A stretch of 64,000 bases of DNA. Source: a virus. The DNA lies in the IMG/VR virus record IMGVR_UViG_3300043185_000079; one strand, given 5' to 3'. Position 1 is the stretch's first letter; each line of letters opens with the position of its first letter. A model generated the notes under the pieces. That model had not been told where the DNA came from and made no database searches. It saw only the letters and a list, made by a program, of their open reading frames with translations. Positions 48,024-64,000 of this stretch are shown here, piece by piece. The translations under genes and the position numbers were made by a program.

Positions 48024-49916
48024 GTGGCCAAGGCGGCTGCCAACTTGGCCAGGATGGCCCTCAACGCGGGCCGCCTCCCTGAAGACGCCGGTCGACGCGA
48101 TGTTGTAGACAGCATCACCTTCGTCGAGTCCGAGTGGGGCCTGGGGATGCGGCTCTACCCGGTCCAGAGGGTCATCCTCAAGGCCCATTACGGGATTCCC
48201 CTGGACGATGACCCGGCGAACGCGTTCACGATCACGGACTGGCGCCGACAGAATCCCAAGGACTTCACCGAGGCCGGGTATCTCCGCTATCTGTACGAAC
48301 AGGGCCGGTCCAACATCCGTGAGGTCGTGCCGGGTGTCGAGAGACGTCAGCTCGTGCTTTCCATCGGCCGGCGATCTGGAAAAACCCTGATCGCGTCCTG
48401 CATTTCGGCCTACGAGACGTACAAGCTGATCAACCTTGGCAATCCACAGCGATATTTCGGTCTGAGCCCGTCATCGAACATTCAGCTCATCTCGATCGCC
48501 ACCGGCAAGGACCAGGCGGGACTGCTCTACTCCGAGGTGTCCGGACACTTCTCCAAGTGCAACTTCTTCCGGCGTTACACGGCGAACCATACGATGAGCT
48601 ATGCGCGCTTTCAGACCCCGCGCGACATCGAGGAGTTCGGGTCGTACGATGAGAATCCCAAGGCTCGGGCCAGTCTCAAGGTCACGTTCCACGCCTGCAA
48701 CGCCAAGGGGCTCCGCGGCGCCGGCAACATCGTCGTCATCCTCGACGAGGTTGCACACTTCGTCGAGCAGGGCGGATCCTCGGCCGAAGAGGTCTATCAG
48801 GCGGTGCACGCGTCGACCGGCACGTTCACGCCGAAGGACGACCTCGGTGAGCCGATCGACGGCGCGATGACAGAGTCCGAGGGACGGATGATTCTCATCT
48901 CGTCTCCACTGGGTAAGCAGGGACTGTTCTACAAGAAATTCCAGCAGGGGATGAGTGGCGGAGAATCGGCCGGGCACATGCTGTGCATCCAGGCTCCGAC
49001 ATGGGAAGTCAACCCGACAGTCTCCGCGAGCGTGTTCAAGGACGCCTACGCCGAGGACCCGAGGATCTTCTTCACGGAGTGGGGCGGGGAGTTCACGGAC
49101 CGTACTCTCGGATGGCTGGAGAACCCTGAGGATCTCCTCGCGTGCATTGACAAGGAACTACGCCCACGGACGCGCGGGCAACCACGACGCCAGTACTTCG
49201 TAGGCTTCGACCTCGGGCTCGTCAACGACGCGAGCGCGATCGCAATCACCCACATCGACGAGAACAACAGGATTGTTCTCGACTTCATCGGTCAGATGAT
49301 GGCGGGTGAAGGAGAGTACGCGGACAAGGAGCGACTGGAGTTCGATGATGTGGCGGCGTGGATCTACGGCCTATCGCGTCGGTTCCACTTCCACTCGGGA
49401 CTCTTTGACCAGTGGGGAGCGATCCCACTGGAACAGGCGCTCGCCAAGAAAGGCTTGACGCAGATCGAGGGAAAGTTGTTCTCGCCGCAGGAGAAGTCGC
49501 AGATTTGGCAGAACTTCAAGTCCATGATCTGGGACAAACGTCTCGTCCTCTTCGACATCACACCGGAAGAGAGGCAGAAGTATCTGTCCCGGGAGGAGAT
49601 TCCGCCGGACCACCTCGCGTACATCCAGCAGATGCTCGAGCTGCAGGCGACGTACAAGAGTCGGTACGTCGTCGAGGTCGAAGCGCCGCAGACGGATGGC
49701 AAGCACGACGACTTGGCGGACGCGCTCTCCAGGTCGGTATGGCTCGCGAGTCAGCAGATTGGGAAGCTCAAACACATCGCTCGCAGCGGCCTCAACACTC
49801 CAGCACACGTCGTGCGACCCCAGGTTTCGGCCGCGATTCGCCGGGCCAATCGCAGGCAGTCCCTCCTTGGAGGGTCCGATCCCAAGCGGCAGATCCAGAA
49901 ACGGAGGCGATGGTAG
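48024..49916 (+). CDS. terL: terminase large subunit
   Basis: GRRSGKT, VILDE, LISSP, and RNase H-like GFDLG...HDDLADA. Confidence 0.9.
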   Translation: MAKAAANLARMALNAGRLPEDAGRRDVVDSITFVESEWGLGMRLYPVQRVILKAHYGIPLDDDPANAFTITDWRRQNPKDFTEAGYLRYLYEQGRSNIREVVPGVERRQLVLSIGRRSGKTLIASCISAYETYKLINLGNPQRYFGLSPSSNIQLISIATGKDQAGLLYSEVSGHFSKCNFFRRYTANHTMSYARFQTPRDIEEFGSYDENPKARASLKVTFHACNAKGLRGAGNIVVILDEVAHFVEQGGSSAEEVYQAVHASTGTFTPKDDLGEPIDGAMTESEGRMILISSPLGKQGLFYKKFQQGMSGGESAGHMLCIQAPTWEVNPTVSASVFKDAYAEDPRIFFTEWGGEFTDRTLGWLENPEDLLACIDKELRPRTRGQPRRQYFVGFDLGLVNDASAIAITHIDENNRIVLDFIGQMMAGEGEYADKERLEFDDVAAWIYGLSRRFHFHSGLFDQWGAIPLEQALAKKGLTQIEGKLFSPQEKSQIWQNFKSMIWDKRLVLFDITPEERQKYLSREEIPPDHLAYIQQMLELQATYKSRYVVEVEAPQTDGKHDDLADALSRSVWLASQQIGKLKHIARSGLNTPAHVVRPQVSAAIRRANRRQSLLGGSDPKRQIQKRRRW

Positions 49917-50728: not shown

Positions 50729-52672
50729 ATGCCGGCTGAGGGCACGAAGAACGCCATCGCTGGGTCGGCAAGCCCCTCGTCTCTCAAGAAGAACGACGAC
50801 GAGGTCGTGGTGGGCACGGTCGAGCAGCGAAGAGGACGGCCCGAACGCGTGGGCGTGGACACCATGAGAACGGCATCGGCCGGGAACGCTCAGGTGGCCG
50901 AGGATAGTCGTCGAGGGGTTCAAGTTGGAAAACCTTCCCGTGTTGTCACGGGAACCATGCGTGGCCGGGCTGGTCCTCCCAGCTTCCGTGACAAGGTAGC
51001 GGCGGCATGTGGCCCTGGATCGGGGAGTTTCGGTGGCCTTGGCGGCGCTGGGGGCGTTGTCGGCGGGGGAGGAGGGAGCGGCGGGGGAGGAGGGTTCTCT
51101 GGCAACTTCGGACCGGGCAGTGTCGCGCAGGCCAGTTCGGGCAACTTCTACAGTCCCGAACTCAGCACGGACTTCCTGGAGCTTCCACAGTCTCTCAACG
51201 AACAGTGGAACTACTACAGGTTTTTCTACAACAACGAGCCGTTCGTCGGACAGGCTATCGATCTACACACGGAGCTGCCGCTGTCGAAGGTCCGGCTGGC
51301 TCGCCCGAGGGCTCAGACCCGCGAACTCGCCGATCAGGCTCTCCGGTTTTGCGAGAAGTGGATCAACCGGATCGGACTCCTGCAGCGGCTTATTGAGATT
51401 GTTCACGAGTACTACCTGATCGGCGAGGTGTTCATCTTCTGCGAGGACGCGAACCCGGACATGCCGCAGGAGGTCCGACAGAAGGTGGTGCGCGAGGTCA
51501 AGCCCGACGGCTCCCTGGTCGAGACATGGGTGGACTACGATGACGCCGACGCGCGAGCGGTGCGGTGGATGAAGAAGAACTACAGGGGCTGGACGGCCAT
51601 CCGCGTGCTGCCACCAGAGCAAGTCCACATCGAGACATTCCCCTTCACGAGCCAGGCTCTCATCGAGCTAATTCCTGACGCCAAGACGAGGCATGTCATT
51701 AACATGGCGGACCAGGGCGACGAAAGGGCCTGGCGCATTGTCGAATCCATGGACTCCGCCGTCGTGGATGCCGTGCGCGGTGGCGCGAACATCCCCCTGA
51801 GCACCGATCCGGACGGGGGCTCTTTTGTCCACTACATGGCGAACAAGAAGTCCCAGTATGAGCCCAGGGGCCACAGTATCCTGCAGCGATGTTTGAGGGT
51901 CTTGGTATTTTCTGACAAACTGAGACAGGCTCAGACTCAAATTGCTTCGCGGCACATGACCCCGATCCGTCTCGTCTACGCTGAGGACATGGACGAGACG
52001 GACACGGAGGCGCTGCGCGACCAGATTGATCTCGCCTTGCAGGACCCCGACTACTCGATCGTGACCAACTTCCAGGTCACGTGGGAGGAGATGAACAGTA
52101 ACGGCCGTTTGCTTGAGCTGTCCTCAGAGTACGACCTCATCAACCGCCAGCTCTACGCGGGTCTCGGCGTCACCGAGGCGCTCCTCAACGGCGAGTCGAG
52201 CTATTCCGGCGACCGCATCAACCTGGAAGTCATCAACACGAGGTACATGCTCCTCCGCGAGAACATCCAGAACCTCGTGGAGGAGAACTTCTTCAAGCCC
52301 ATGTGTCGACGCATGGGGTTCGTCGAGGAGGATGAGGACGGCAACCTGGAAGTCATCTACCCTCGCCTGTCCTTCACGCGGCTCGCTCTCCGGGACAACC
52401 AGGACACCTTCGACGCGCTGTTCCAGCTCTACCAGAAGGGCTCGCTGGACGTGGAGACCATCCTGGATCTACTGAACATCGACCCCGTGACCGTGCGCGA
52501 GCGCCTGGAGCGGGATTTTGCGACGTATAACGACGCGAACTTCAACGAGGTTCTTCGGTCGATGTACGGACGAGTCGGTGACCAGATCGTGGAGGGGTCG
52601 GACCTGGTGGAGAGGATCGCCAAGACCCTCGGGCTCGAGTACAAGAAGCCCGAGCAGGCTGGCCGTTTCTAG
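50729..52672 (+). CDS. portal protein
   Basis: Downstream of TerL; RFFY..EPFVGQAIDLH, EYYLIGEVF and RGHSILQRCLR patterns; Gly-rich N-terminal extension. Confidence 0.75.
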   Translation: MPAEGTKNAIAGSASPSSLKKNDDEVVVGTVEQRRGRPERVGVDTMRTASAGNAQVAEDSRRGVQVGKPSRVVTGTMRGRAGPPSFRDKVAAACGPGSGSFGGLGGAGGVVGGGGGSGGGGGFSGNFGPGSVAQASSGNFYSPELSTDFLELPQSLNEQWNYYRFFYNNEPFVGQAIDLHTELPLSKVRLARPRAQTRELADQALRFCEKWINRIGLLQRLIEIVHEYYLIGEVFIFCEDANPDMPQEVRQKVVREVKPDGSLVETWVDYDDADARAVRWMKKNYRGWTAIRVLPPEQVHIETFPFTSQALIELIPDAKTRHVINMADQGDERAWRIVESMDSAVVDAVRGGANIPLSTDPDGGSFVHYMANKKSQYEPRGHSILQRCLRVLVFSDKLRQAQTQIASRHMTPIRLVYAEDMDETDTEALRDQIDLALQDPDYSIVTNFQVTWEEMNSNGRLLELSSEYDLINRQLYAGLGVTEALLNGESSYSGDRINLEVINTRYMLLRENIQNLVEENFFKPMCRRMGFVEEDEDGNLEVIYPRLSFTRLALRDNQDTFDALFQLYQKGSLDVETILDLLNIDPVTVRERLERDFATYNDANFNEVLRSMYGRVGDQIVEGSDLVERIAKTLGLEYKKPEQAGRF

Positions 52673-54837: not shown

Positions 54838-55276
54838 GGCTGACCCAAGGAAAGCACTCAAGGAGATGAAGGCACTGGGTCTGCTGGACGTGGTGTCTGA
54901 GATGATCCGGGAACAGAAGCCGTTCGCTACCTACATGGCCAACCAGCTCAGAGCCGACAGGCGCGTCCAGCTCCTTCTCGACATGATGGACCTTGGCGTC
55001 CCGGCCAGTATGCCCCTGTCCTTCCTCGACGCGGCCGGACGACAGCGCCTGCGCGAGCTGACCGTATCGATGTCTGAGGACGAGGCGTCGAGGCTCGTCG
55101 ATCTCCTGATTAAGCCGCCCGTGGACAGCATGCGCGTCATCACAGAGCTTGCCCTGGAGGGGCCGGCGCGGGCCGGGATCCTGCCCGCAGCCAGGCAGCT
55201 GATTCTCGCGCACCCGTGGCTGGCTAACGATTCCCGCCGGCTGACGGAGGAGGTGATCCGGCAGTGGACCAAATGA
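54838..55276 (+). CDS. probable detached C-terminal part of the CCA/poly(A) polymerase-like protein
   Basis: Same frame as the upstream gene; RKALKEMKALGLL matches the helix that follows the head/neck in this family. Confidence 0.55.
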
Positions 55277-55425
55277 TCACCCGTGTCGCCGCCCGACATG
55301 CCGTGCTCCGTTCGGCAACGGGTTACTTCCGCGAGGGCGAGGACATCCTGTTCGATCGCTACAACAAGGCCGGAAGAGGAACCGGACGATGGGCCTCTTC
55401 AACATCTGGAAGTTGTCTGAGGTGA
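55273..55425 (+). pseudogene. short RVA-motif ORF; probable frameshifted N-terminus of the 55389 protein
   Basis: ATGA-coupled start MITRVAARHAVLRSATGYF...; overlaps the 55389 frame, which is open upstream of its ATG. Confidence 0.5.
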
Positions 55426-58400
55426 GAGGCCTGCCTCCAAAAACCGGACGTGGAGTCGCGTTTCATGGTACGCGGTCGAAGAATCTCGATCACCTGCGGC
55501 GTTATGGGCTCGTGCCTGGAGCACGCAGTGCGTACACGGACGCCTATAGTAAGTACGACGACGGGCGTCATCTGTTCTTCACAGACAATGAGGACTTGGC
55601 GCGCCATTACGGAGACCTGATTCTGCGATTCCCTTGGCCAAGCGAAGCCAAGCCTGATGTTAACGAATTCGGACGCTATCTTCCTGGACAGTTCGTCTCC
55701 TTGCGGAAAATCCCGCCAGACGAGATCGATGTTTTGCGTGAGGGTACTTGGGAACCTCTCGTTGGAGGCTTGTCGAAGCAGGCCTGCATCATCGTCGGCA
55801 AGGACTTCGACGGCCACCTCTGTCTCCTCAAGAACCGGGATCGGTCGTACGACGTCAAGCTCCAGATCATGCACATGGAGTTCAACGGCGTCGAGATGGC
55901 GTTCGTACTCGATCTCGAGACCGGCTACCTGGAAGGGGTCAACGAGCACGGGATCGGCGTTGTCAACACGACGCTCATGGTGCTTCATGATGAGGCAGAA
56001 GGGCACTCGACCAAAACCAAGGGCAAGACGACGCTCAAGTCGAAGGATGGCCCGAAGATCTTCCACGCCCTCATACAGGACAATCTCCAAGACGCGGTCG
56101 ATGTTCTCGTGAGTTTCCGGGGAGGGATCCGCGGCCACACGTTCGTGGCCGACGGACAGACGCTGCTCAGTATTGAGTGCACTCGAAAGAACCCGGCCCG
56201 GGTACATCATCTCGATCCGGGGAGGGTCAACACGAGGACCAACCATGGCGTCTCATATCCCGAGGCTGGGTACACGCGCGGCGAGGACTATGTCTCGTCC
56301 ATCGTCCGTCGATGGGAGGCGCAGAAGCGGATTCAAGGGGTGAAGCGGCCAGAGGCCGCTGCTCCGGCCCTCGCAACGCTGATCGACGAGGCCGACAGCC
56401 CGTTCAATCCTGTCCGAGTGACTGACAAGATGCGGACGACGAGCCAGCTCCTCATCGATACGAGCACTCCGTCTCTCTACCTCTACCTTATTCCAGGTCA
56501 CGCGCGCGTCACCAAGATTCTCAATCTCCTTCCCGGAGGCAGAGCACCGAAGATTCCCGTCCGGGTGTTTCGCTACCGCAAGCGGATGGAAGACCGAGAC
56601 TTTGAGGACGACGGCCATGAGATGAAGGATGAAGTGGCAGATCCAGGAGGTGACTTGCTGGAGAAACGAACTGCTCGCTATAAGGACAAGAAGACGGTCA
56701 AGACCAAAGACGGCGACGAGCGAGTCATCTACGAGTACGGCCCGCGACAGGTCCTCAACCGCAACAAGGCCAAGGCGGAGCGTATCGAGAATCTGCGCAA
56801 GCAGATGTCGGCTCTCCGTCGGAAGGTCAAGAAGGACCTGGAGTCGTCCGACGACCAGAAACGCGCTGTTGCTCTCGCCGTCGCGCTGATGGACGAAACC
56901 TATGAGCGGCCCGGCAACGAAGCCAGTGCCAGCGAGGGTCACTACGGCGTGACGACGTGGCAGAACCGGCACGTCAAGTTCCGCAACGGAAAGGCCACGA
57001 TCACATACGTCGGGAAGTCTGGAGTCGAGCACAAGAAGGTCGTCGAGACACCGGCAGTCGTGAAGGCTCTCAAGATGCTCTGCAAGGGCCGAGGGAAGGA
57101 TGATCGCCTCATCGACGTCGAGGCGGCTGACGTCAACGAGTTCCTACGCTCGTTCGAGATTACGGCCAAGGACATCCGAGGGTTCCACGCGAACCGCGAG
57201 ATGAAGGACCGTCTCAAGAGGATCCGCCGTGAGGGGCCGGATCTCCCGCGGCCCCTCAAAGATCGAGACAAGATCCTGAAAGAGGAGTTCAAGCAGGCGC
57301 TGGCCGAAACCGCTGAGGCCGTAGGCCATACCGAATCCACGCTGCGCAGCCAGTACCTCGTCCCCGGGCTCGAGGACGAGTACATGAAGGACGGCACCGT
57401 CAGCGACAGCCACGTGAAGTCCGGGGGGGCGGCCCTTCTAGGCGCTCCTGGGGTCCAGGAGCGCCCAGAAGGCGCGCTGAGGGTCGCCGCCACCCGAGGC
57501 ACACCGACGGAGCGGAGGATCCTGGCGAACGCCCTGCTTGCCCCGGTGCTCGTAGTGCGCGATCGCCGCTGGTGGCTCGACGAGGCGCCGTCCCTCTACC
57601 GCCTGGCCCGTGACCACGAGCGGCCTAGACCTGTCATCGACGGTCTCCGGTTCGACCCCGACCTGTTCGCGATGCTCTGGTACGAGGACGAGGACGGGAA
57701 CAGGTTGCCCGAACCGCCCATTGGGGACCTCGCAATTCCGGAGGACTCCCATACACAGCATTCGAGGTTCCCCAACGTGCTGCGGCACACCATCCTGTTG
57801 CTTAATGACGACGGGACGTCGTCGAGCCTCGCGGCTGGGGAAAGTTCCTTTCCCTCTGATCTCGTGACGCAGATGGTTCGCAGCGGCGACTGGGACACCG
57901 CAGACGCAATCATGGTTGCCGGCCAGGCCTGCGAGCGATGCCTCAACGTCCTGCTCCACCATTACGGGATCGGGGATGGCTACCCGTTCGGGTCCGAGGA
58001 CTATTGGCGGGCGAACACAGTCTGTTCGATGTGCGAGGACATCGGCCGTCGAATGGCGACGAAGTCTCCCGCCGAGAAGGAGGATGAGAACGTCGAGAAG
58101 ATGCTACGGCCGGAACCGAAGAAGAAGCCTCCGCGCTACGACCTCCGCAACAACAGAACGCTGGAGGACCGGGACGAGGACCTGGAGGGTATGGGCGCAG
58201 GAGATCGTGGGGATCGAGACTTGAGTCTCAAGTGGAACAAGGTCGCTCATCGGGTGGCGTTCCGGTGGCTGGCCGTTCCCCTCGCGCCCGCTCCTCTGCG
58301 TGTGGCAATGCGGCGCATCGCCAGGCAGTTCCCCTCCGAGTTCCAGGACGAGGTGGCACACCAGCGGTTCACGCATCCAGAGACGCGCAACTCAGTCGGG

Positions 58401-60425
58401 TTTGGGTCGTTGCCTAGCGAGGAGCAGTCGAAGATCTACAAGCGGTGGAAAAGCAAGGCGCGGGAAGACAAGGCTCCACCAGAGGATGCCGAGAAATCCG
58501 AGAAAGGCAAGGAGGATGACGTCGAGCGTGAACTCGACGAGGCACGCGATCGGGTCGATTCTCTGGAGGATAAGGTTGATAAGGCCAAGGACCAGATCAA
58601 GGAATCGCGCGAAAACATCAAGGGGATCAAGAATCTGCTAGAGAAGGCTGGCGAGACGGCCCGAGGACAGCTCGAAGGAAAGCTGCGCGAGGAGGTCTCC
58701 AAGATGCGGAAGGCCGAGGACGCGCTGGAGGAAGTCACCGACGAATTGGAGGCGGCGCGCAAGCGTGTCGATCAGCTCAAGGCGGAGCGTAAGGCTCCCA
58801 CGAGCCGCGAAGACAAACGACGCGAGGATGAAGAGAAGCGCCGCAAGGAACGTGCCGAGGAGACTCTGGACGAGGTGCGCGATGCGGTGCGGGGGATGGT
58901 GTCGAAGGACTCCGACATCCCCGAGGACGTTCGGGCACAGATTGAGACCGCCTTCGCCAACTTGAGCGAGGAGCAAGTAGAGGATTTTTCCGAGGCATTC
59001 CAGAAGTCGTTGGGGAAGCTCGTCAGAACGGACGCTTCGTCCGAGGAGGCTGCGAACCTGGCCAACGCCTCGGTCCGCGCCGATCTGAGTGAGATTGAGG
59101 ATCCCGCAGAGCTGGCACGCACAGTTGCCGAAGTCGCGTACGCACGCAACGTGGTGACCAATCCTCTCGTCGTGGGTGGGAAGCCGCTCGGACAGACGAA
59201 GATGGACGATGCTGGCTACTCCGGTCGTGCTATGGAATCGTTCCGTCAGTTTCAGCGTCTCAGCCCTGCTCTCCGCGAGAGTGCGGCGGAAAAGATCGCG
59301 GAAGAGCTTCGCGGTCTCGACGAGGACTCCGATAAGGCACAAGAGCTACAGGCGATTCTCACAGGCATCAACACGGCTCATATCGCGGACACAGGCCACG
59401 CTTTGCCGGGTCGACCGCAGCCGAACAAAGGTGCCGCGGCTCTCATCCGTCGCATGGTGGAGAACGGTCAAGCCGAGACGATGTTCAAGCCGGTCGAGGA
59501 CTTCTTCGCCGACGACAGCCGCGCCGCGATGCAAAAGGCGCTCTCGGAAATGGACGACGCGGAGGTTGCTGACTTCGTGATCGGAGACGACGGGGATCAC
59601 CCATTCGGTAAGCTCCGCGAGGCCATGCAGGAGAAGGGCGCCAGTGAGTACAAGCAGCTCATCAAGGACTTCCTGATCCAAGATTTCATGAGTGACATCT
59701 GGGGTGATCGGGCCGTACGCGATTACATGGAGTCCGCTGGTTTCGCCGACTTCGATAATCCGGAGGCCAGGGCGCAGTTGCTTCGGGACACGAGGTACGC
59801 AACTGCACCCGAGGCAGACATGCAGGCGATCGCCAGGGCGCAGGCGGCGATCGCGGCCGGTCAGAAACCTGATCCAGAGGATGAGGAGCGTGCTCGAAAT
59901 TTCCTCGATCCAGAGACGGGGGGCGGGATCCGTGGGAAACTCCGCAAGCTCATGGAGATCTTGCAATCCAAGGTCAAGAAGCGTGTTGTCACCCCCGCGA
60001 CCGCGGTGATCAACCACTTCCTGGAGACGGGCGAGGCCGAGGTCCTCCACCAGGAGACCCTTCCACATCCTGACGAGGGCCGGGGCGGGGACACGGAGGC
60101 CAAGGAAGACGAGGGACACGGGTTGGGCGACGTGTGGAAAACTGACGAGGGGAACTGGCGCGCCAAGAATCTCGACGGAGTGCCCAAGACTTTCGATACG
60201 CGAGAGAAGGCCCAAGCATACGCCAAGGGCGGCAAGGACCGCAGGAAGCCATCGCGCGGCAGCGAGGCCCCTGGCGAGGAATTCTCGGCCGAGTTCACCG
60301 TGCCCGTCGAAGAACGAGGACCGACGAGGTTTGCCAACCATGTCGCGAACGCTTGGCTGGCCCAAGTGCGCAAATGCCACCCAGACGATCCGGGGCGTCC
60401 GCGAGTGGTTTTTGATACGGCTTGA
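55389..60425 (+). CDS. 1678-aa polyprotein: ART-like domain, Ntn-hydrolase, DNA topoisomerase IB, unknown and coiled-coil modules
   Basis: FHGT...GLVP...FFT...IPP; C-IIV...KNRD...EGVNEHG; topo IB residues ERPGN, GKSG, KDIR and GHT...QY. Confidence 0.8.
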   Translation: MGLFNIWKLSEVRGLPPKTGRGVAFHGTRSKNLDHLRRYGLVPGARSAYTDAYSKYDDGRHLFFTDNEDLARHYGDLILRFPWPSEAKPDVNEFGRYLPGQFVSLRKIPPDEIDVLREGTWEPLVGGLSKQACIIVGKDFDGHLCLLKNRDRSYDVKLQIMHMEFNGVEMAFVLDLETGYLEGVNEHGIGVVNTTLMVLHDEAEGHSTKTKGKTTLKSKDGPKIFHALIQDNLQDAVDVLVSFRGGIRGHTFVADGQTLLSIECTRKNPARVHHLDPGRVNTRTNHGVSYPEAGYTRGEDYVSSIVRRWEAQKRIQGVKRPEAAAPALATLIDEADSPFNPVRVTDKMRTTSQLLIDTSTPSLYLYLIPGHARVTKILNLLPGGRAPKIPVRVFRYRKRMEDRDFEDDGHEMKDEVADPGGDLLEKRTARYKDKKTVKTKDGDERVIYEYGPRQVLNRNKAKAERIENLRKQMSALRRKVKKDLESSDDQKRAVALAVALMDETYERPGNEASASEGHYGVTTWQNRHVKFRNGKATITYVGKSGVEHKKVVETPAVVKALKMLCKGRGKDDRLIDVEAADVNEFLRSFEITAKDIRGFHANREMKDRLKRIRREGPDLPRPLKDRDKILKEEFKQALAETAEAVGHTESTLRSQYLVPGLEDEYMKDGTVSDSHVKSGGAALLGAPGVQERPEGALRVAATRGTPTERRILANALLAPVLVVRDRRWWLDEAPSLYRLARDHERPRPVIDGLRFDPDLFAMLWYEDEDGNRLPEPPIGDLAIPEDSHTQHSRFPNVLRHTILLLNDDGTSSSLAAGESSFPSDLVTQMVRSGDWDTADAIMVAGQACERCLNVLLHHYGIGDGYPFGSEDYWRANTVCSMCEDIGRRMATKSPAEKEDENVEKMLRPEPKKKPPRYDLRNNRTLEDRDEDLEGMGAGDRGDRDLSLKWNKVAHRVAFRWLAVPLAPAPLRVAMRRIARQFPSEFQDEVAHQRFTHPETRNSVGFGSLPSEEQSKIYKRWKSKAREDKAPPEDAEKSEKGKEDDVERELDEARDRVDSLEDKVDKAKDQIKESRENIKGIKNLLEKAGETARGQLEGKLREEVSKMRKAEDALEEVTDELEAARKRVDQLKAERKAPTSREDKRREDEEKRRKERAEETLDEVRDAVRGMVSKDSDIPEDVRAQIETAFANLSEEQVEDFSEAFQKSLGKLVRTDASSEEAANLANASVRADLSEIEDPAELARTVAEVAYARNVVTNPLVVGGKPLGQTKMDDAGYSGRAMESFRQFQRLSPALRESAAEKIAEELRGLDEDSDKAQELQAILTGINTAHIADTGHALPGRPQPNKGAAALIRRMVENGQAETMFKPVEDFFADDSRAAMQKALSEMDDAEVADFVIGDDGDHPFGKLREAMQEKGASEYKQLIKDFLIQDFMSDIWGDRAVRDYMESAGFADFDNPEARAQLLRDTRYATAPEADMQAIARAQAAIAAGQKPDPEDEERARNFLDPETGGGIRGKLRKLMEILQSKVKKRVVTPATAVINHFLETGEAEVLHQETLPHPDEGRGGDTEAKEDEGHGLGDVWKTDEGNWRAKNLDGVPKTFDTREKAQAYAKGGKDRRKPSRGSEAPGEEFSAEFTVPVEERGPTRFANHVANAWLAQVRKCHPDDPGRPRVVFDTA

Positions 60426-61274: not shown

Positions 61275-61904
61275 ATGAAACGTACAGCAGACGCAGGAAA
61301 CTGGCAGGCCCGCGGACAAGAGTTCGCGGTGGGGCAAGCTGTGCGTCTCGTCAATGGCAGCCCAACCGACGAGGGTCGCGTCACCGCTGTCTGGCCTGGA
61401 ATCGGATGCGTCGATGTGCAGTGGCCACACACGTCGTATCGCCACTTGGTTGAGGATCTCCAGATTGTCAACCCGGGCGAGGACGAGTTCGTCGCGCCCA
61501 TGCACGAGGACGTGCCGGGAGGGCCCCCGTCCTCGGCGTGGGTCTCGCAAGGGGCCCCTCAGACGAACGAGATCACGCACGAGGACCCACGAGTCGAGTT
61601 CGTCCACGACATCGCGGGCAAAGTGGCATCTCAACCGTCTGCGCAGCGGGTGGCGATCGCGTTCGTGAAGCATTCTCTTTACTGGCACGCTCGGGACCGG
61701 AAGTACCGCGTCAGCCGGGACGAACACGCAGAGGGCCGGTATAGATGCCCCACCCGTGGGTGCGAACAGATGTTGCGCCGTGCAACCTACAAGATGGAGA
61801 ACGGATCTCCGATCAAGCTGCTCGCCTGCGGCTCGTGCTTGTTCATGATCCGCGAGCATGACGTACTCTCTGACCACTGCACTCCACATGAGGAGACCTG
61901 CTAG
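61275..61904 (+). CDS. putative head protein with Zn-ribbon
   Basis: KRTA, KVAS and QRVAIAF; CPTRGC...CGSC. Confidence 0.65.
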   Translation: MKRTADAGNWQARGQEFAVGQAVRLVNGSPTDEGRVTAVWPGIGCVDVQWPHTSYRHLVEDLQIVNPGEDEFVAPMHEDVPGGPPSSAWVSQGAPQTNEITHEDPRVEFVHDIAGKVASQPSAQRVAIAFVKHSLYWHARDRKYRVSRDEHAEGRYRCPTRGCEQMLRRATYKMENGSPIKLLACGSCLFMIREHDVLSDHCTPHEETC

Positions 61905-61905
61905 C

Positions 61906-64000
61906 GTGGCGTTCCTCAAGCGAGCCAGCGGGGTCGTCGTTCATCGGGGGTGGTCTCCAGAGAACTGGGGCAACTTCGTCGGCCAGAACAAGGAGCGACT
62001 CGCGAATGGGCCGTACCGAACGGCCGCCGGGGCGCTGAACTTGGTCGCGCAGGCGAGCGAGATCCTCGGCGAAGAGTTCGATCCGAAGAACTTCCTCCTG
62101 ACGCACGCGACGATCGTGGCCTCGGTCGACACGGAGGAGGCCGGGAACGTCAAGCTCGGGTCCGTCGTCGAGGACGGACGCAAGATCCTGCGCAAGTTTG
62201 GCGACTACAGGATCACGCCCGACACCGAGCAGTGGATCAACAACAACCACGACAGCTGGTCTCGCGGGGTCCTGCTCAAGAGCTACCGGACGTTCGTCGG
62301 TGCCCACAACTTCCTCGAGCACTGCCAGCTCGAGCACCTGTCGAAGGGTCGAATCGTCGACGCCGTCGCCCGCGACATCGGACCGTCGATCTACGTCGAC
62401 ATCCTCGTCGCCACCAACCGCAAGCACGCGAGCCTCATCCAGGACATCGAGAACGGCCGGATGGGCACGCTGTCCATGGGGTGCACTTGCGTGCACACGA
62501 CCTGCACGAAGTGCGGGAACGTGGGCCATGATGAGACTGAGCTTTGCTTCCCTCCCGGCACTCGTGTACTGCTTGCCGAAGGCAAGTACCGTCCCATTGA
62601 GGAGATCGTCGAAGGCGATTTCGTGCTCTCTCACACGGGTAGGCGTCGTGCTGTTGTTAGGACCATGCGCCGTGAGTACGAGGGCAACTTGGTGGTCCTC
62701 GACGTAGAGGGCGTTCCGGTCTCGGTGAAGGCAACGCCCAAGCATCCGTTTTGGACGCTGCGACCAGCACAGATCTGTGCTTGCGGCTGCGGTCAACCCC
62801 TTCGACGGACCGTCGAGCACGAACGGGGATCCGCCAAGGCATTCAAGCGTCGATTTTTGCCACACCATGCCGGCTCTCTACACAACGTAGTATCGATGGA
62901 CGCGTACCAGCGCATCTTCGATACCGAGATGGAGTTCGTCGAGGCACAGGATCTCCGTCGAGGAGATTACTTGGCCTTCCCGATTCCGCGCGACGTCGAG
63001 AACAGCGCGGATGCCACAGTCAACCGGGCTCGTTTGATCGGGTTCTTTCTGGCCGAAGGCAGTTTCATTAAGCGAGACGGCAGGAGGGTCGGCATCGCCT
63101 TTTCGTTTGGGTACCACGAGTACGACACCCTTGCGGCCGAGGTCCAGAGGCTTCTGAACCTTGAGTTTGGACGAGACGAGCGTCGGCAAGATTGTCTTGA
63201 CTGGCAGGATTTGGTTGCTCGCAATCACACGCGGGCAATCAAAAGGCGCGCCAACAGCCGCGCCGTCCCTCCAGAGGTGACGTGTCCGACATGTGCTGCG
63301 CCCTCGCAGTACGCCTACAATGCCCGTTTCAAGGCGGGGCACGACGACTGTTATCAGTGCAAGGTATGTGGGCGCTCGTGGATCCACCAAGCGGACAGAT
63401 CCCTTCACGCCACACGATACAAGTGTCCGATTGACAGACCTGAGACTGGGTCCGTCGAAGTCCGGCTCATGGACGAAGAGGCGGCGGATTTTTTCTACAG
63501 CTACTGCGGCGAATACGCGAACGAGAAGGCGCTGGATCCATCGGTCCTGCGTTGGGCTCCTGATGTCCAGAGACACGTTTTGTTCGGGTGGCTCGGAGGA
63601 GATGGGACCCAGAGTGTGGTTGGTATCCGAGGCAACACGGCTTCCTTCCATCTCCAGAATCAGATGCACATTCTCGCCGCGCGGTGCGGTCTGTATGCCT
63701 ACAGAACGGTCGTGTTCGACGGGAGATCAGGGACCATCGATCAAGTGGTGAACGGTGACGGCTCTGTCACGGCGCGAGATTGCAGAGGCTGGCTTCCGAG
63801 CTTTGGTCTCGTGCTATCTGAGCCGAAGGGGTTCAATGGCGAGGTCCGGTTTTCCGATCGGGAGCCGCGGACCACCCTCACCGAGATGACAGATAGTTAC
63901 AAGCGCGTTGGGGACTGGTTCGTCTATCGGATCCGAGATGTTGGCCGCGAGTCGTACTGCGGAACGGTCCACAATCTGGAAATCTCTGAAGACAACTCCT
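61906..64000 (+). CDS. prohead (capsid maturation) protease, intein-containing; 3'-truncated and absent from the ORF track
   Basis: AGGAG RBS and GTG. Hand translation is open to the window end: INNNHDSW...FLEH...GRIVDA...LSMGC...CTKCGN. Confidence 0.75.
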   Translation, partial: MAFLKRASGVVVHRGWSPENWGNFVGQNKERLANGPYRTAAGALNLVAQASEILGEEFDPKNFLLTHATIVASVDTEEAGNVKLGSVVEDGRKILRKFGDYRITPDTEQWINNNHDSWSRGVLLKSYRTFVGAHNFLEHCQLEHLSKGRIVDAVARDIGPSIYVDILVATNRKHASLIQDIENGRMGTLSMGCTCVHTTCTKCGNVGHDETELCFPPGTRVLLAEGKYRPIEEIVEGDFVLSHTGRRRAVVRTMRREYEGNLVVLDVEGVPVSVKATPKHPFWTLRPAQICACGCGQPLRRTVEHERGSAKAFKRRFLPHHAGSLHNVVSMDAYQRIFDTEMEFVEAQDLRRGDYLAFPIPRDVENSADATVNRARLIGFFLAEGSFIKRDGRRVGIAFSFGYHEYDTLAAEVQRLLNLEFGRDERRQDCLDWQDLVARNHTRAIKRRANSRAVPPEVTCPTCAAPSQYAYNARFKAGHDDCYQCKVCGRSWIHQADRSLHATRYKCPIDRPETGSVEVRLMDEEAADFFYSYCGEYANEKALDPSVLRWAPDVQRHVLFGWLGGDGTQSVVGIRGNTASFHLQNQMHILAARCGLYAYRTVVFDGRSGTIDQVVNGDGSVTARDCRGWLPSFGLVLSEPKGFNGEVRFSDREPRTTLTEMTDSYKRVGDWFVYRIRDVGRESYCGTVHNLEISEDNS
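62545..64000 (+). mobile_element. intein with LAGLIDADG-type endonuclease in the protease (end lies beyond the window)
   Basis: CFPPGTRV, ATPKHPF, LIGFFLAEG, FGWLGGDG and VHNLEISEDNS. Confidence 0.88.

Follow-up and report, generated by a model that had tools for sequence, protein, structure and literature searches.

A protease-type motif directly before the catalytic cysteine of a viral Ntn hydrolase suggests activation by the prohead protease

Introduction

N-terminal nucleophile (Ntn) hydrolases are textbook examples of self-activating enzymes. Here, we describe an Ntn-hydrolase domain that is encoded within a polyprotein in the head module of the uncultivated virus IMGVR_UViG_3300043185_000079, of which a stretch of 64,000 nucleotides was analysed (in the following: the window). 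The original prediction, made from the letters of the window, held that the catalytic cysteine of this domain (Cys133) directly follows a K-Q-A junction and is exposed by the prohead protease of the phage, with autoprocessing named as the alternative. Our analysis supports this proposal: the prohead protease probably frees the Cys133 nucleophile and would thereby gate an enzyme carried as virion cargo. Both component ideas are known, namely Ntn zymogens on the one hand, and capsid targeting leaders together with processing by prohead proteases on the other hand. A literature search returned no paper joining Ntn hydrolases with prohead proteases.

The closest described enzymes are acyl-CoA:isopenicillin N acyltransferase (AAT) and the C45 family (PF03417, NF040521). 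AAT is the best Foldseek match of the phage domain (Z 19 in a structural alignment with VIA; E 1.2e-9 for the C45 profile), with Cys133 placed on Cys103 of AAT. However, the phage domain scores below both curated cut-offs and is without a counterpart of the alpha chain of AAT, which comprises approximately 100 residues. AAT cuts itself at the bond between Gly102 and Cys103, whereas the phage junction bears a phage protease motif at this position. A second group are the bile salt hydrolases (BSH) and penicillin V acylases (PVA; C59, choloylglycine hydrolase). Like the phage domain, these Cys-Ntn enzymes consist of a single chain with the nucleophile at its start (Z 16-17). BSH exposes Cys2 through removal of the initial Met, and those phage members that have only a Met in front of the cysteine would expose it likewise. 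PVA sheds a propeptide of 3 residues, comparable in length to the five-residue M-x-K-x-A leaders found in phages. There is no match to BSH or PVA at the sequence level, and removal of the PVA propeptide is autocatalytic, whereas the phage leaders end in lineage-specific protease motifs. A third group, NAAA and acid ceramidase (C89), aligns with Z 19-20, with Cys133 on the start of the beta chain (Cys126 of human NAAA, Cys143 of acid ceramidase). In contrast to the phage domain, these enzymes are lysosomal and non-viral, retain an alpha subunit, and cleave themselves upon an acid trigger.

With respect to phage proteins, the internal proteins and Alt of T4 carry a short N-terminal leader, which has a protease motif at its end and is cleaved off within the prohead (PMC9958956, PMC9026906). 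An E-class member of the family described here resembles this arrangement, as its Ntn gene is found, in a T4-like contig, in the gp21-gp23 cluster adjoining genes similar to those of internal proteins. The cut in T4 releases cargo from the core; the cut proposed here would also create the catalytic residue, resulting in a capsid-protease zymogen. The ejection proteins of phiKZ and SPN3US (processed by the gp175/gp245 protease) are comparable in that they include many head-internal enzymes whose propeptides are cut at a three-residue motif. These phages use S/A-X-E, whereas the lineage of the window appears to use [K/R]-x-A, a protease of another family, and enzymes organized as long polyproteins.

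Results

Fold and family of the Ntn domain

Two points had been named beforehand as capable of refuting the proposal, and both were examined: the Ntn fold of the domain, and the preference of its homologues for K/R-x-A in front of the cysteine. The peptide quoted in the original prediction, including its CIIVGKDFDGHLCLLKNRD and EGVNEHGIGVVN blocks, is found in the plus-strand open reading frame (ORF) at 55389-60425, with the EGVNEHGIGVVN block located about 50 residues downstream of the junction. The codons AAG-CAG-GCC-TGC span positions 55776-55787; the last of them begins at position 55785, as predicted, and encodes Cys133 after K-Q-A.

A model built with AlphaFold from the single sequence (residues 1-420) was unusable (pLDDT 34). 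The model built on an alignment of 50 homologues reached a pLDDT of 89.5 and a pTM of 0.88, with alternating sheets and helices; linker residues 121-128 (model residues 1-8) have a pLDDT below 50. Searched against the PDB with Foldseek, the model gave 88 matches with E <=0.001, and every top match is an Ntn hydrolase: AAT, as precursor and in mature form, ranks first (best match 2x1c, E 3.9e-9), followed by BSH, NAAA, PVA and acid ceramidase. Structural alignment with VIA gave Z 17-21 to mature Ntn hydrolases, and placed model residue 13, which corresponds to Cys133, opposite the start of the mature chain (residues 126-131 of NAAA, 143 of acid ceramidase, 2 of BSH and 1 of PVA). For the AAT precursor, model residue 6 is aligned to residue 96, which puts model residue 13 on Cys103. 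Invariant columns among 51 aligned sequences are Cys133, a K-x-R-D-R motif, the Asn of a T-N-H-G motif, and a later Arg. As modelled, residues 133 to approximately 397 are a Cys-type Ntn hydrolase with the four-layer alpha-beta-beta-alpha architecture, in agreement with the predicted fold and nucleophile position. The predicted end of the domain at 56640 was slightly generous, as the modelled fold stops near residue 397 (about 56579).

By sequence comparison, the family is related to C45, yet separate from it and without an alpha chain. The match to the NCBIfam model C45_proenzyme (NF040521, 'C45 family autoproteolytic'; E 1.2e-9) scores 38 bits with a cut-off of 85, and is limited to profile positions 101-307, such that positions 1-100 remain unmatched. 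The Pfam model for AAT (PF03417) gives 14.1 bits with a cut-off of 23.2. Rather than a C45-type pro-region or alpha chain, the upstream sequence consists of a lone Met, a leader of 4-5 residues, or unrelated domains. No Pfam or NCBIfam model matches the domain above its cut-off, a search of PHROGs with five members of the family returned no family, phmmer against PDB sequences gave chance matches to antibodies only, and megablast of the polyprotein gene against cultured phages gave nothing. Within viral sequences the family is large: an exhaustive phmmer search identified 427 representative clusters (50% identity), 149 of them at <1e-30, and IMG/VR holds at least 559 loci. The domain occurs either standalone (approximately 265-300 aa) or within longer proteins (up to 2792 aa), at varied positions, and its nearest Atlas clusters are 100% viral. 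Among 50,697 phage records, only the Chryseobacterium phages MA9V-1 and MA9V-2 were found to be cultured carriers (tblastn). The family is almost wholly uncultivated.

These relationships bear on the alternative that the cysteine frees itself by attacking the preceding peptide bond (N-to-S acyl shift), with the prohead protease uninvolved. The nearest solved structures (AAT, NAAA, acid ceramidase and PVA) are those of autoproteolytic Cys-Ntn enzymes, the NCBIfam match is to a model of autoproteolytic proteins, and the catalytic Cys/Arg/Asp/Asn set is invariant. The absence of an alpha chain or pro-segment of the kind found in AAT, NAAA and acid ceramidase, with unrelated sequences upstream instead, argues against self-cleavage as the only route.

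A conserved junction in front of the catalytic cysteine

We note that a lone [KR]-x-[AGS] tripeptide is weak evidence, as 46 of them occur in the polyprotein ORF compared to 57.7 expected from composition. The junction exceeds chance not by the frequency of the tripeptide but by its conservation across homologues. In all 26 homologous polyproteins (1118-2586 aa), [KR]-x-[A/G/S] is found immediately ahead of the aligned cysteine, in line with the predicted K/R-x-A preference. The sequence further upstream is a five-residue M-K-K-E-A, a conserved leader, or an unrelated domain, and still P3 and P1 are kept.

The same holds for the family at large, for which 160 representatives were considered. 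The junction reads [KR]-x-[AGS] in 110 representatives (K class), with P3 being K in 73 and R in 37 cases, P1 being A in 87, S in 12 and G in 11 cases, and P2 and P4 being variable. A second class (E class, 43 representatives) has [LIVM]-x-E at this position, and one representative has T-S-E. In four representatives the cysteine is preceded by Met alone (M/C class), and two have the near variants R-L-V and L-G-Q; an arbitrary junction was found in none of the 160. A protease-type motif is thereby present in exact register before the cysteine in about 154 of the 160 representatives. This register argues for an N-terminus generated by protease cleavage rather than by subsequent self-cleavage: in a self-cleaving enzyme the protease site would be expected to drift, and self-cleavage prior to packaging would split the enzyme from its N-terminal leader, which the cargo would then lose.

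The conservation also bears on the possibility that the bond is not cleaved at all, with the domain being an inactive or non-catalytic module, or using an internal cysteine, and the tripeptide being a chance feature of the linker. A single [KR]-x-[AGS] is indeed common at this composition. However, with the cysteine and the catalytic set invariant in 51 aligned sequences, the junction conserved in 160 homologues, and the cysteine of the M/C members located at the true N-terminus, we consider this reading very improbable.

At P5, 44 of the 110 K-class junctions have a Met, as though genes with five-residue leaders had been fused repeatedly. A phylogeny of the domain separates the K class from the E class as two clades (support 99), with one K/E change. 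If the enzyme activated itself, the conserved P3 and P1 would be family-specific requirements of self-cleavage or old remnants of gene starts; the Met at P5 suggests inherited M-x-K-x-A leaders, and each of the two clades may have its own context of self-cleavage. Against this, the two contexts match the cleavage rule of the protease in the E lineage and a motif enriched in the scaffold of the K lineage, as detailed below.

Junction class and type of the phage protease

The proteases were typed in 25 IMG/VR contigs (9 of the K class, 13 of the E class and 3 of the M/C class). Peptidase_S77, the type of T4 gp21, was found in none of the nine K-class contigs, in seven of the 13 E-class contigs, including all three that are >=94% complete, and in all three M/C-class contigs. 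A protease of the window type is present in four K-class contigs (54-65% identity) and in none of the E- and M/C-class contigs. In the contigs typed, the junction switches with the type of protease. Four near-complete contigs of the E and M/C classes also encode a gp23-type capsid protein (E ~1e-76), and the sampled contigs of both classes are T4-like. The cleavage consensus of T4 gp21 is L/I-x-E. Proteases of the gp21 family (T4, phiKZ, 201phi2-1, SPN3US) cleave C-terminal to Glu in x-X-E motifs (PMC5694885, PMC9026906). Correspondingly, all 43 members of the E class have a leader or upstream part that closes in [LIVM]-x-E, the motif type of the gp21-type protease found in sampled contigs of this class.

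The cultured phage MA9V-1 shows the same combination, with the junction F-L-N-E/C (locus tag MA9V1_182; the slash denotes the junction) and an S77 protease. The authors of the MA9V-1 paper, which reports sodium dodecyl sulfate polyacrylamide gel electrophoresis (SDS-PAGE), likewise annotate the protease as S77. The S77 prohead protease domain of MA9V-1 is located within an open frame of about 1349 aa (L002, positions 126501-130544 of the record), far longer than T4 gp21.

The genomic location of the Ntn gene was also considered. In one complete T4-like contig, the gene (leader M-A-K-L-L-N-E) is found between gp21 and the genes for the acidic scaffold (gp22) and gp23. Two small paralogous genes, starting with MK[K/T]QNSYLIME, directly precede it (L018, 2049-2968, plus strand); their leaders close in I-M-E, and the gene layout is that of T4 internal proteins. 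A location in the head module is also found in the window, where portal and protease flank the polyprotein, and in the relative G024, which has the same arrangement. In some T4-like contigs the Ntn gene is far from the head genes, and recognisable head genes were not found in the context of the low-GC (guanine-cytosine) K-class member P0081.

The prohead protease of the window and its presumed motif

The candidate maturation protease of the window is interrupted by an intein. It gives no match to Peptidase_S77 (PF03420) at E <=0.1 and hence is not of the gp21/S77 type; the N-extein has no sequence match in Pfam, NCBIfam or PDB. Relatives identified by tblastn bear annotations as head/capsid maturation or prohead protease. 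Among them are proteins of Tunturi_5 (a Tunturiibacter phage), Stormageddon (a Gordonia phage) and E3 (a Rhodococcus phage; gp77), annotated as head or capsid maturation protease; further relatives are gp19 of phage G and proteins of cluster C mycobacteriophages. The multi-omics paper on phage G contains no cleavage-site data. With respect to the intein, the protease of the relative G003 (L085) has one elsewhere, directly after an invariant L-S-M-G motif, and no intein is present in the aligned N-terminal part of the proteases of the relatives G001, G024 and G002.

Downstream of the protease gene, both G024 and G001 have a scaffold-like gene, after which G024 has the gene for a major head protein of 291 aa (phrog_2522, E 3.8e-50). 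The motif [KR]-x-A-[SAGT] is over-represented 5-9 times in these scaffolds of the window's lineage. It occurs 11 times in the G001 scaffold compared to 1.2 expected (z 9.5), at distinct sites in acidic stretches, and 17 times in the G024 scaffold compared to 3.7 expected (z 7.5), the latter count being inflated by a five-fold internal repeat. The repeat of the G024 protein (L089, 13854-15215, plus strand) reads PKAEAKKKA(S/A), in several copies followed by RLARLRRLAGEEE, and provides 1-2 K/R-x-A sites per copy. The proteases themselves show the enrichment as well, as does a small gene directly upstream. In the capsid protein, the large terminase (TerL) and the enzyme domains, the motif does not exceed expectation.

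The Ntn domains differ by class in this respect. Those of the K class contain 7 internal [KR]-x-A-[SAGT] motifs compared to 58.2 expected (ratio 0.12, about 8 times under expectation), and those of the E class contain 18 compared to 17.7 expected. An avoidance restricted to the K class points to what exposure to a protease of such specificity would select for, and is a further argument against autoprocessing as the sole explanation, which we regard as unlikely overall.

A motif of the [KR]-x-A type is also found at other junctions of the polyproteins; for example, R-V/T-A precedes the topoisomerase IB domain in most polyprotein homologues. This observation, together with the redundant sites in propeptides of the phiKZ type (PMC9026906), would suit a combination of both routes, in which the protease trims the upstream parts and the domain also cleaves itself, the motif being kept for separation or clearance and not for activation. 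If self-cleavage were sufficient, however, the protease site could drift to positions further upstream, which is difficult to reconcile with the exact register in about 154 of 160 representatives. We consider such a combination improbable.

Proposed mechanism

We propose that the polyprotein would be synthesised in an inactive precursor form and packaged into the prohead, where the maturation protease, with a preference for [K/R]-x-A followed by a small residue, would cut between Ala132 and Cys133. The cut would provide the free alpha-amino group that an Ntn nucleophile requires, and would also part the domain from its neighbours. Activation would thereby be tied to capsid maturation and the enzyme switched on only within the capsid, from where it would enter the next host along with the DNA. 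As a default guess, by analogy with its relatives, the enzyme may act on an amide bond of a host lipid, a host peptide or a small molecule. The cut that we infer here, as the original prediction did, is supported by the [LIVM]-x-E junctions of T4-like relatives, by the enrichment of the motif in scaffolds and by its avoidance in K-class domains. With somewhat less confidence, we favour an evolutionary reading in which the family gave up self-activation and became a capsid-protease zymogen, its nucleophile arising from the cut that also serves to process scaffold and cargo, and with the triplet before the cysteine rewritten per lineage to suit the protease: L/I-x-E in T4-like phages and K/R-x-A in the huge-phage lineage.

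Several observations weigh against activation by the protease. The K/E split is a single change at the level of clades, such that the link between motif and protease is supported by a single event together with a mechanistic match. Autoproteolysis frees the cysteine in AAT, NAAA, acid ceramidase and PVA, the closest relatives of solved structure; BSH loses its start Met only, and the residues required for autoproteolysis are conserved in the family. The M/C members indicate that the enzyme can work without a protease. The scaffold enrichment owes part of its count to the repeat in G024. Finally, in the five other K-class contigs, mostly fragments, no protease was found with the window-type profile, Peptidase_S78 or phrog_18299; one K-class contig without a protease has terminal repeats, and shows neither the window type nor S77 nor S78.

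Organization of the locus

The features of the window are listed in Table 1. The polyprotein is followed by two small ORFs and then by the candidate protease. The 2H/CCA fusion between portal and polyprotein suggests a cargo for RNA repair, and the N-terminal domain of the polyprotein itself may, judging from its weak profile match, have an ADP-ribosyltransferase/Tpt1-like fold.

Table 1. Features of the window, with positions given for the whole stretch
Feature	Position	Strand	Remarks
Large terminase	48024-49916		Head module
Portal protein	50729-52672	+	Head-module marker; phrog_16240, E 3.3e-34
2H phosphoesterase / 2'-5' RNA-ligase-like domain fused to CCA-adding (PolyA_pol head) domain, 693 aa	52703-54784	+	Between portal and polyprotein
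Short ORF, 50 aa, other frame	55273-55425	+	First half of conserved leader (RVAARH...GYF..GEDILF..YNK)
Multidomain polyprotein ORF, 1678 aa	55389-60425	+	From ORF list; head module, portal on one side, prohead protease on the other
N-terminal domain, residues 1-117	55389-55739	+	NCBIfam RNA 2'-phosphotransferase (Tpt1/KptA), weak match, E 0.067
K-T-G tripeptide, residues 18-20	55440-55448	+	Aligned to KKTA site closing the leader of homologues
Linker, residues 118-132	55740-55784	+	Closes with K130-Q131-A132 (55776-55784), proposed P3-P1
Cys133 codon TGC	55785-55787	+	Predicted N-terminal nucleophile
Ntn-hydrolase domain, residues 133 to ~397	55785-56579	+	Virus-specific family, C45/AAT-related
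R427-T-A tripeptide	56667-56675	+	Linker ahead of topoisomerase IB domain; aligns with R-V-A/A-R-Y-K junction (26-polyprotein linker alignment)
Topoisomerase IB catalytic core, residues 457-651	56757-57341	+	Pfam PF01028 (Topoisom_I), E 7.1e-27
Candidate prohead maturation protease, N-extein	61858-62544	+	phrog_18299 head maturation protease, E 1.6e-5
Intein in protease	62545-64000	+	After residue 229; Hint/LAGLIDADG matches from residue 230

The domains fused to the Ntn domain are diverse and comprise topoisomerase IB, AIG2/GGACT, NUDIX, a CCA enzyme and, by source label in two homologues, GNAT. The polyproteins of homologues begin with an in-frame leader of approximately 65 aa (RVAARH..GYFxVGDEILFGKYKNK..PKGRKQN..MGLYxIW). 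The polyprotein of the window starts with MGLFNIW, the first half of the leader is located in a separate ORF, and about 28 residues are missing; by sequence, this looks like a deletion with a change of frame. We discarded a programmed -1 frameshift as the connection between leader ORF and polyprotein, since no slippery heptamer is present at 55384-55392. The junction before topoisomerase IB (R-V-A/A-R-Y-K, positions 56667-56690 of the window) resembles the 'tag', RVAxR followed by an aromatic residue, that opens the leader. It is possible that a single element serves as both the presumed tag for targeting and the motif for cleavage.

Implications

Since the cysteine must be residue 1 of the active enzyme, the junction fixes the cleavage register of the protease to the residue. 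It provides a handle, from sequence only, on the specificity of an uncharacterised family of prohead proteases that includes those of phage G and cluster C mycobacteriophages, and assists in locating the cuts within polyproteins of enzymes in huge phages. With MA9V-1 and MA9V-2, two cultured carriers are available for bench tests of the idea. If the proposal is true, the Ntn family would be a built-in reporter of protease specificity and register in uncultivated phages, and would provide the anchor for a K/R-x-A code by which capsid-packed polyproteins of enzymes are processed. The domain would further offer a clear case of a phage cargo enzyme that is kept inert until sealed in the head, and having a separate protease activate it in step with capsid maturation would represent a different control logic for Ntn hydrolases.

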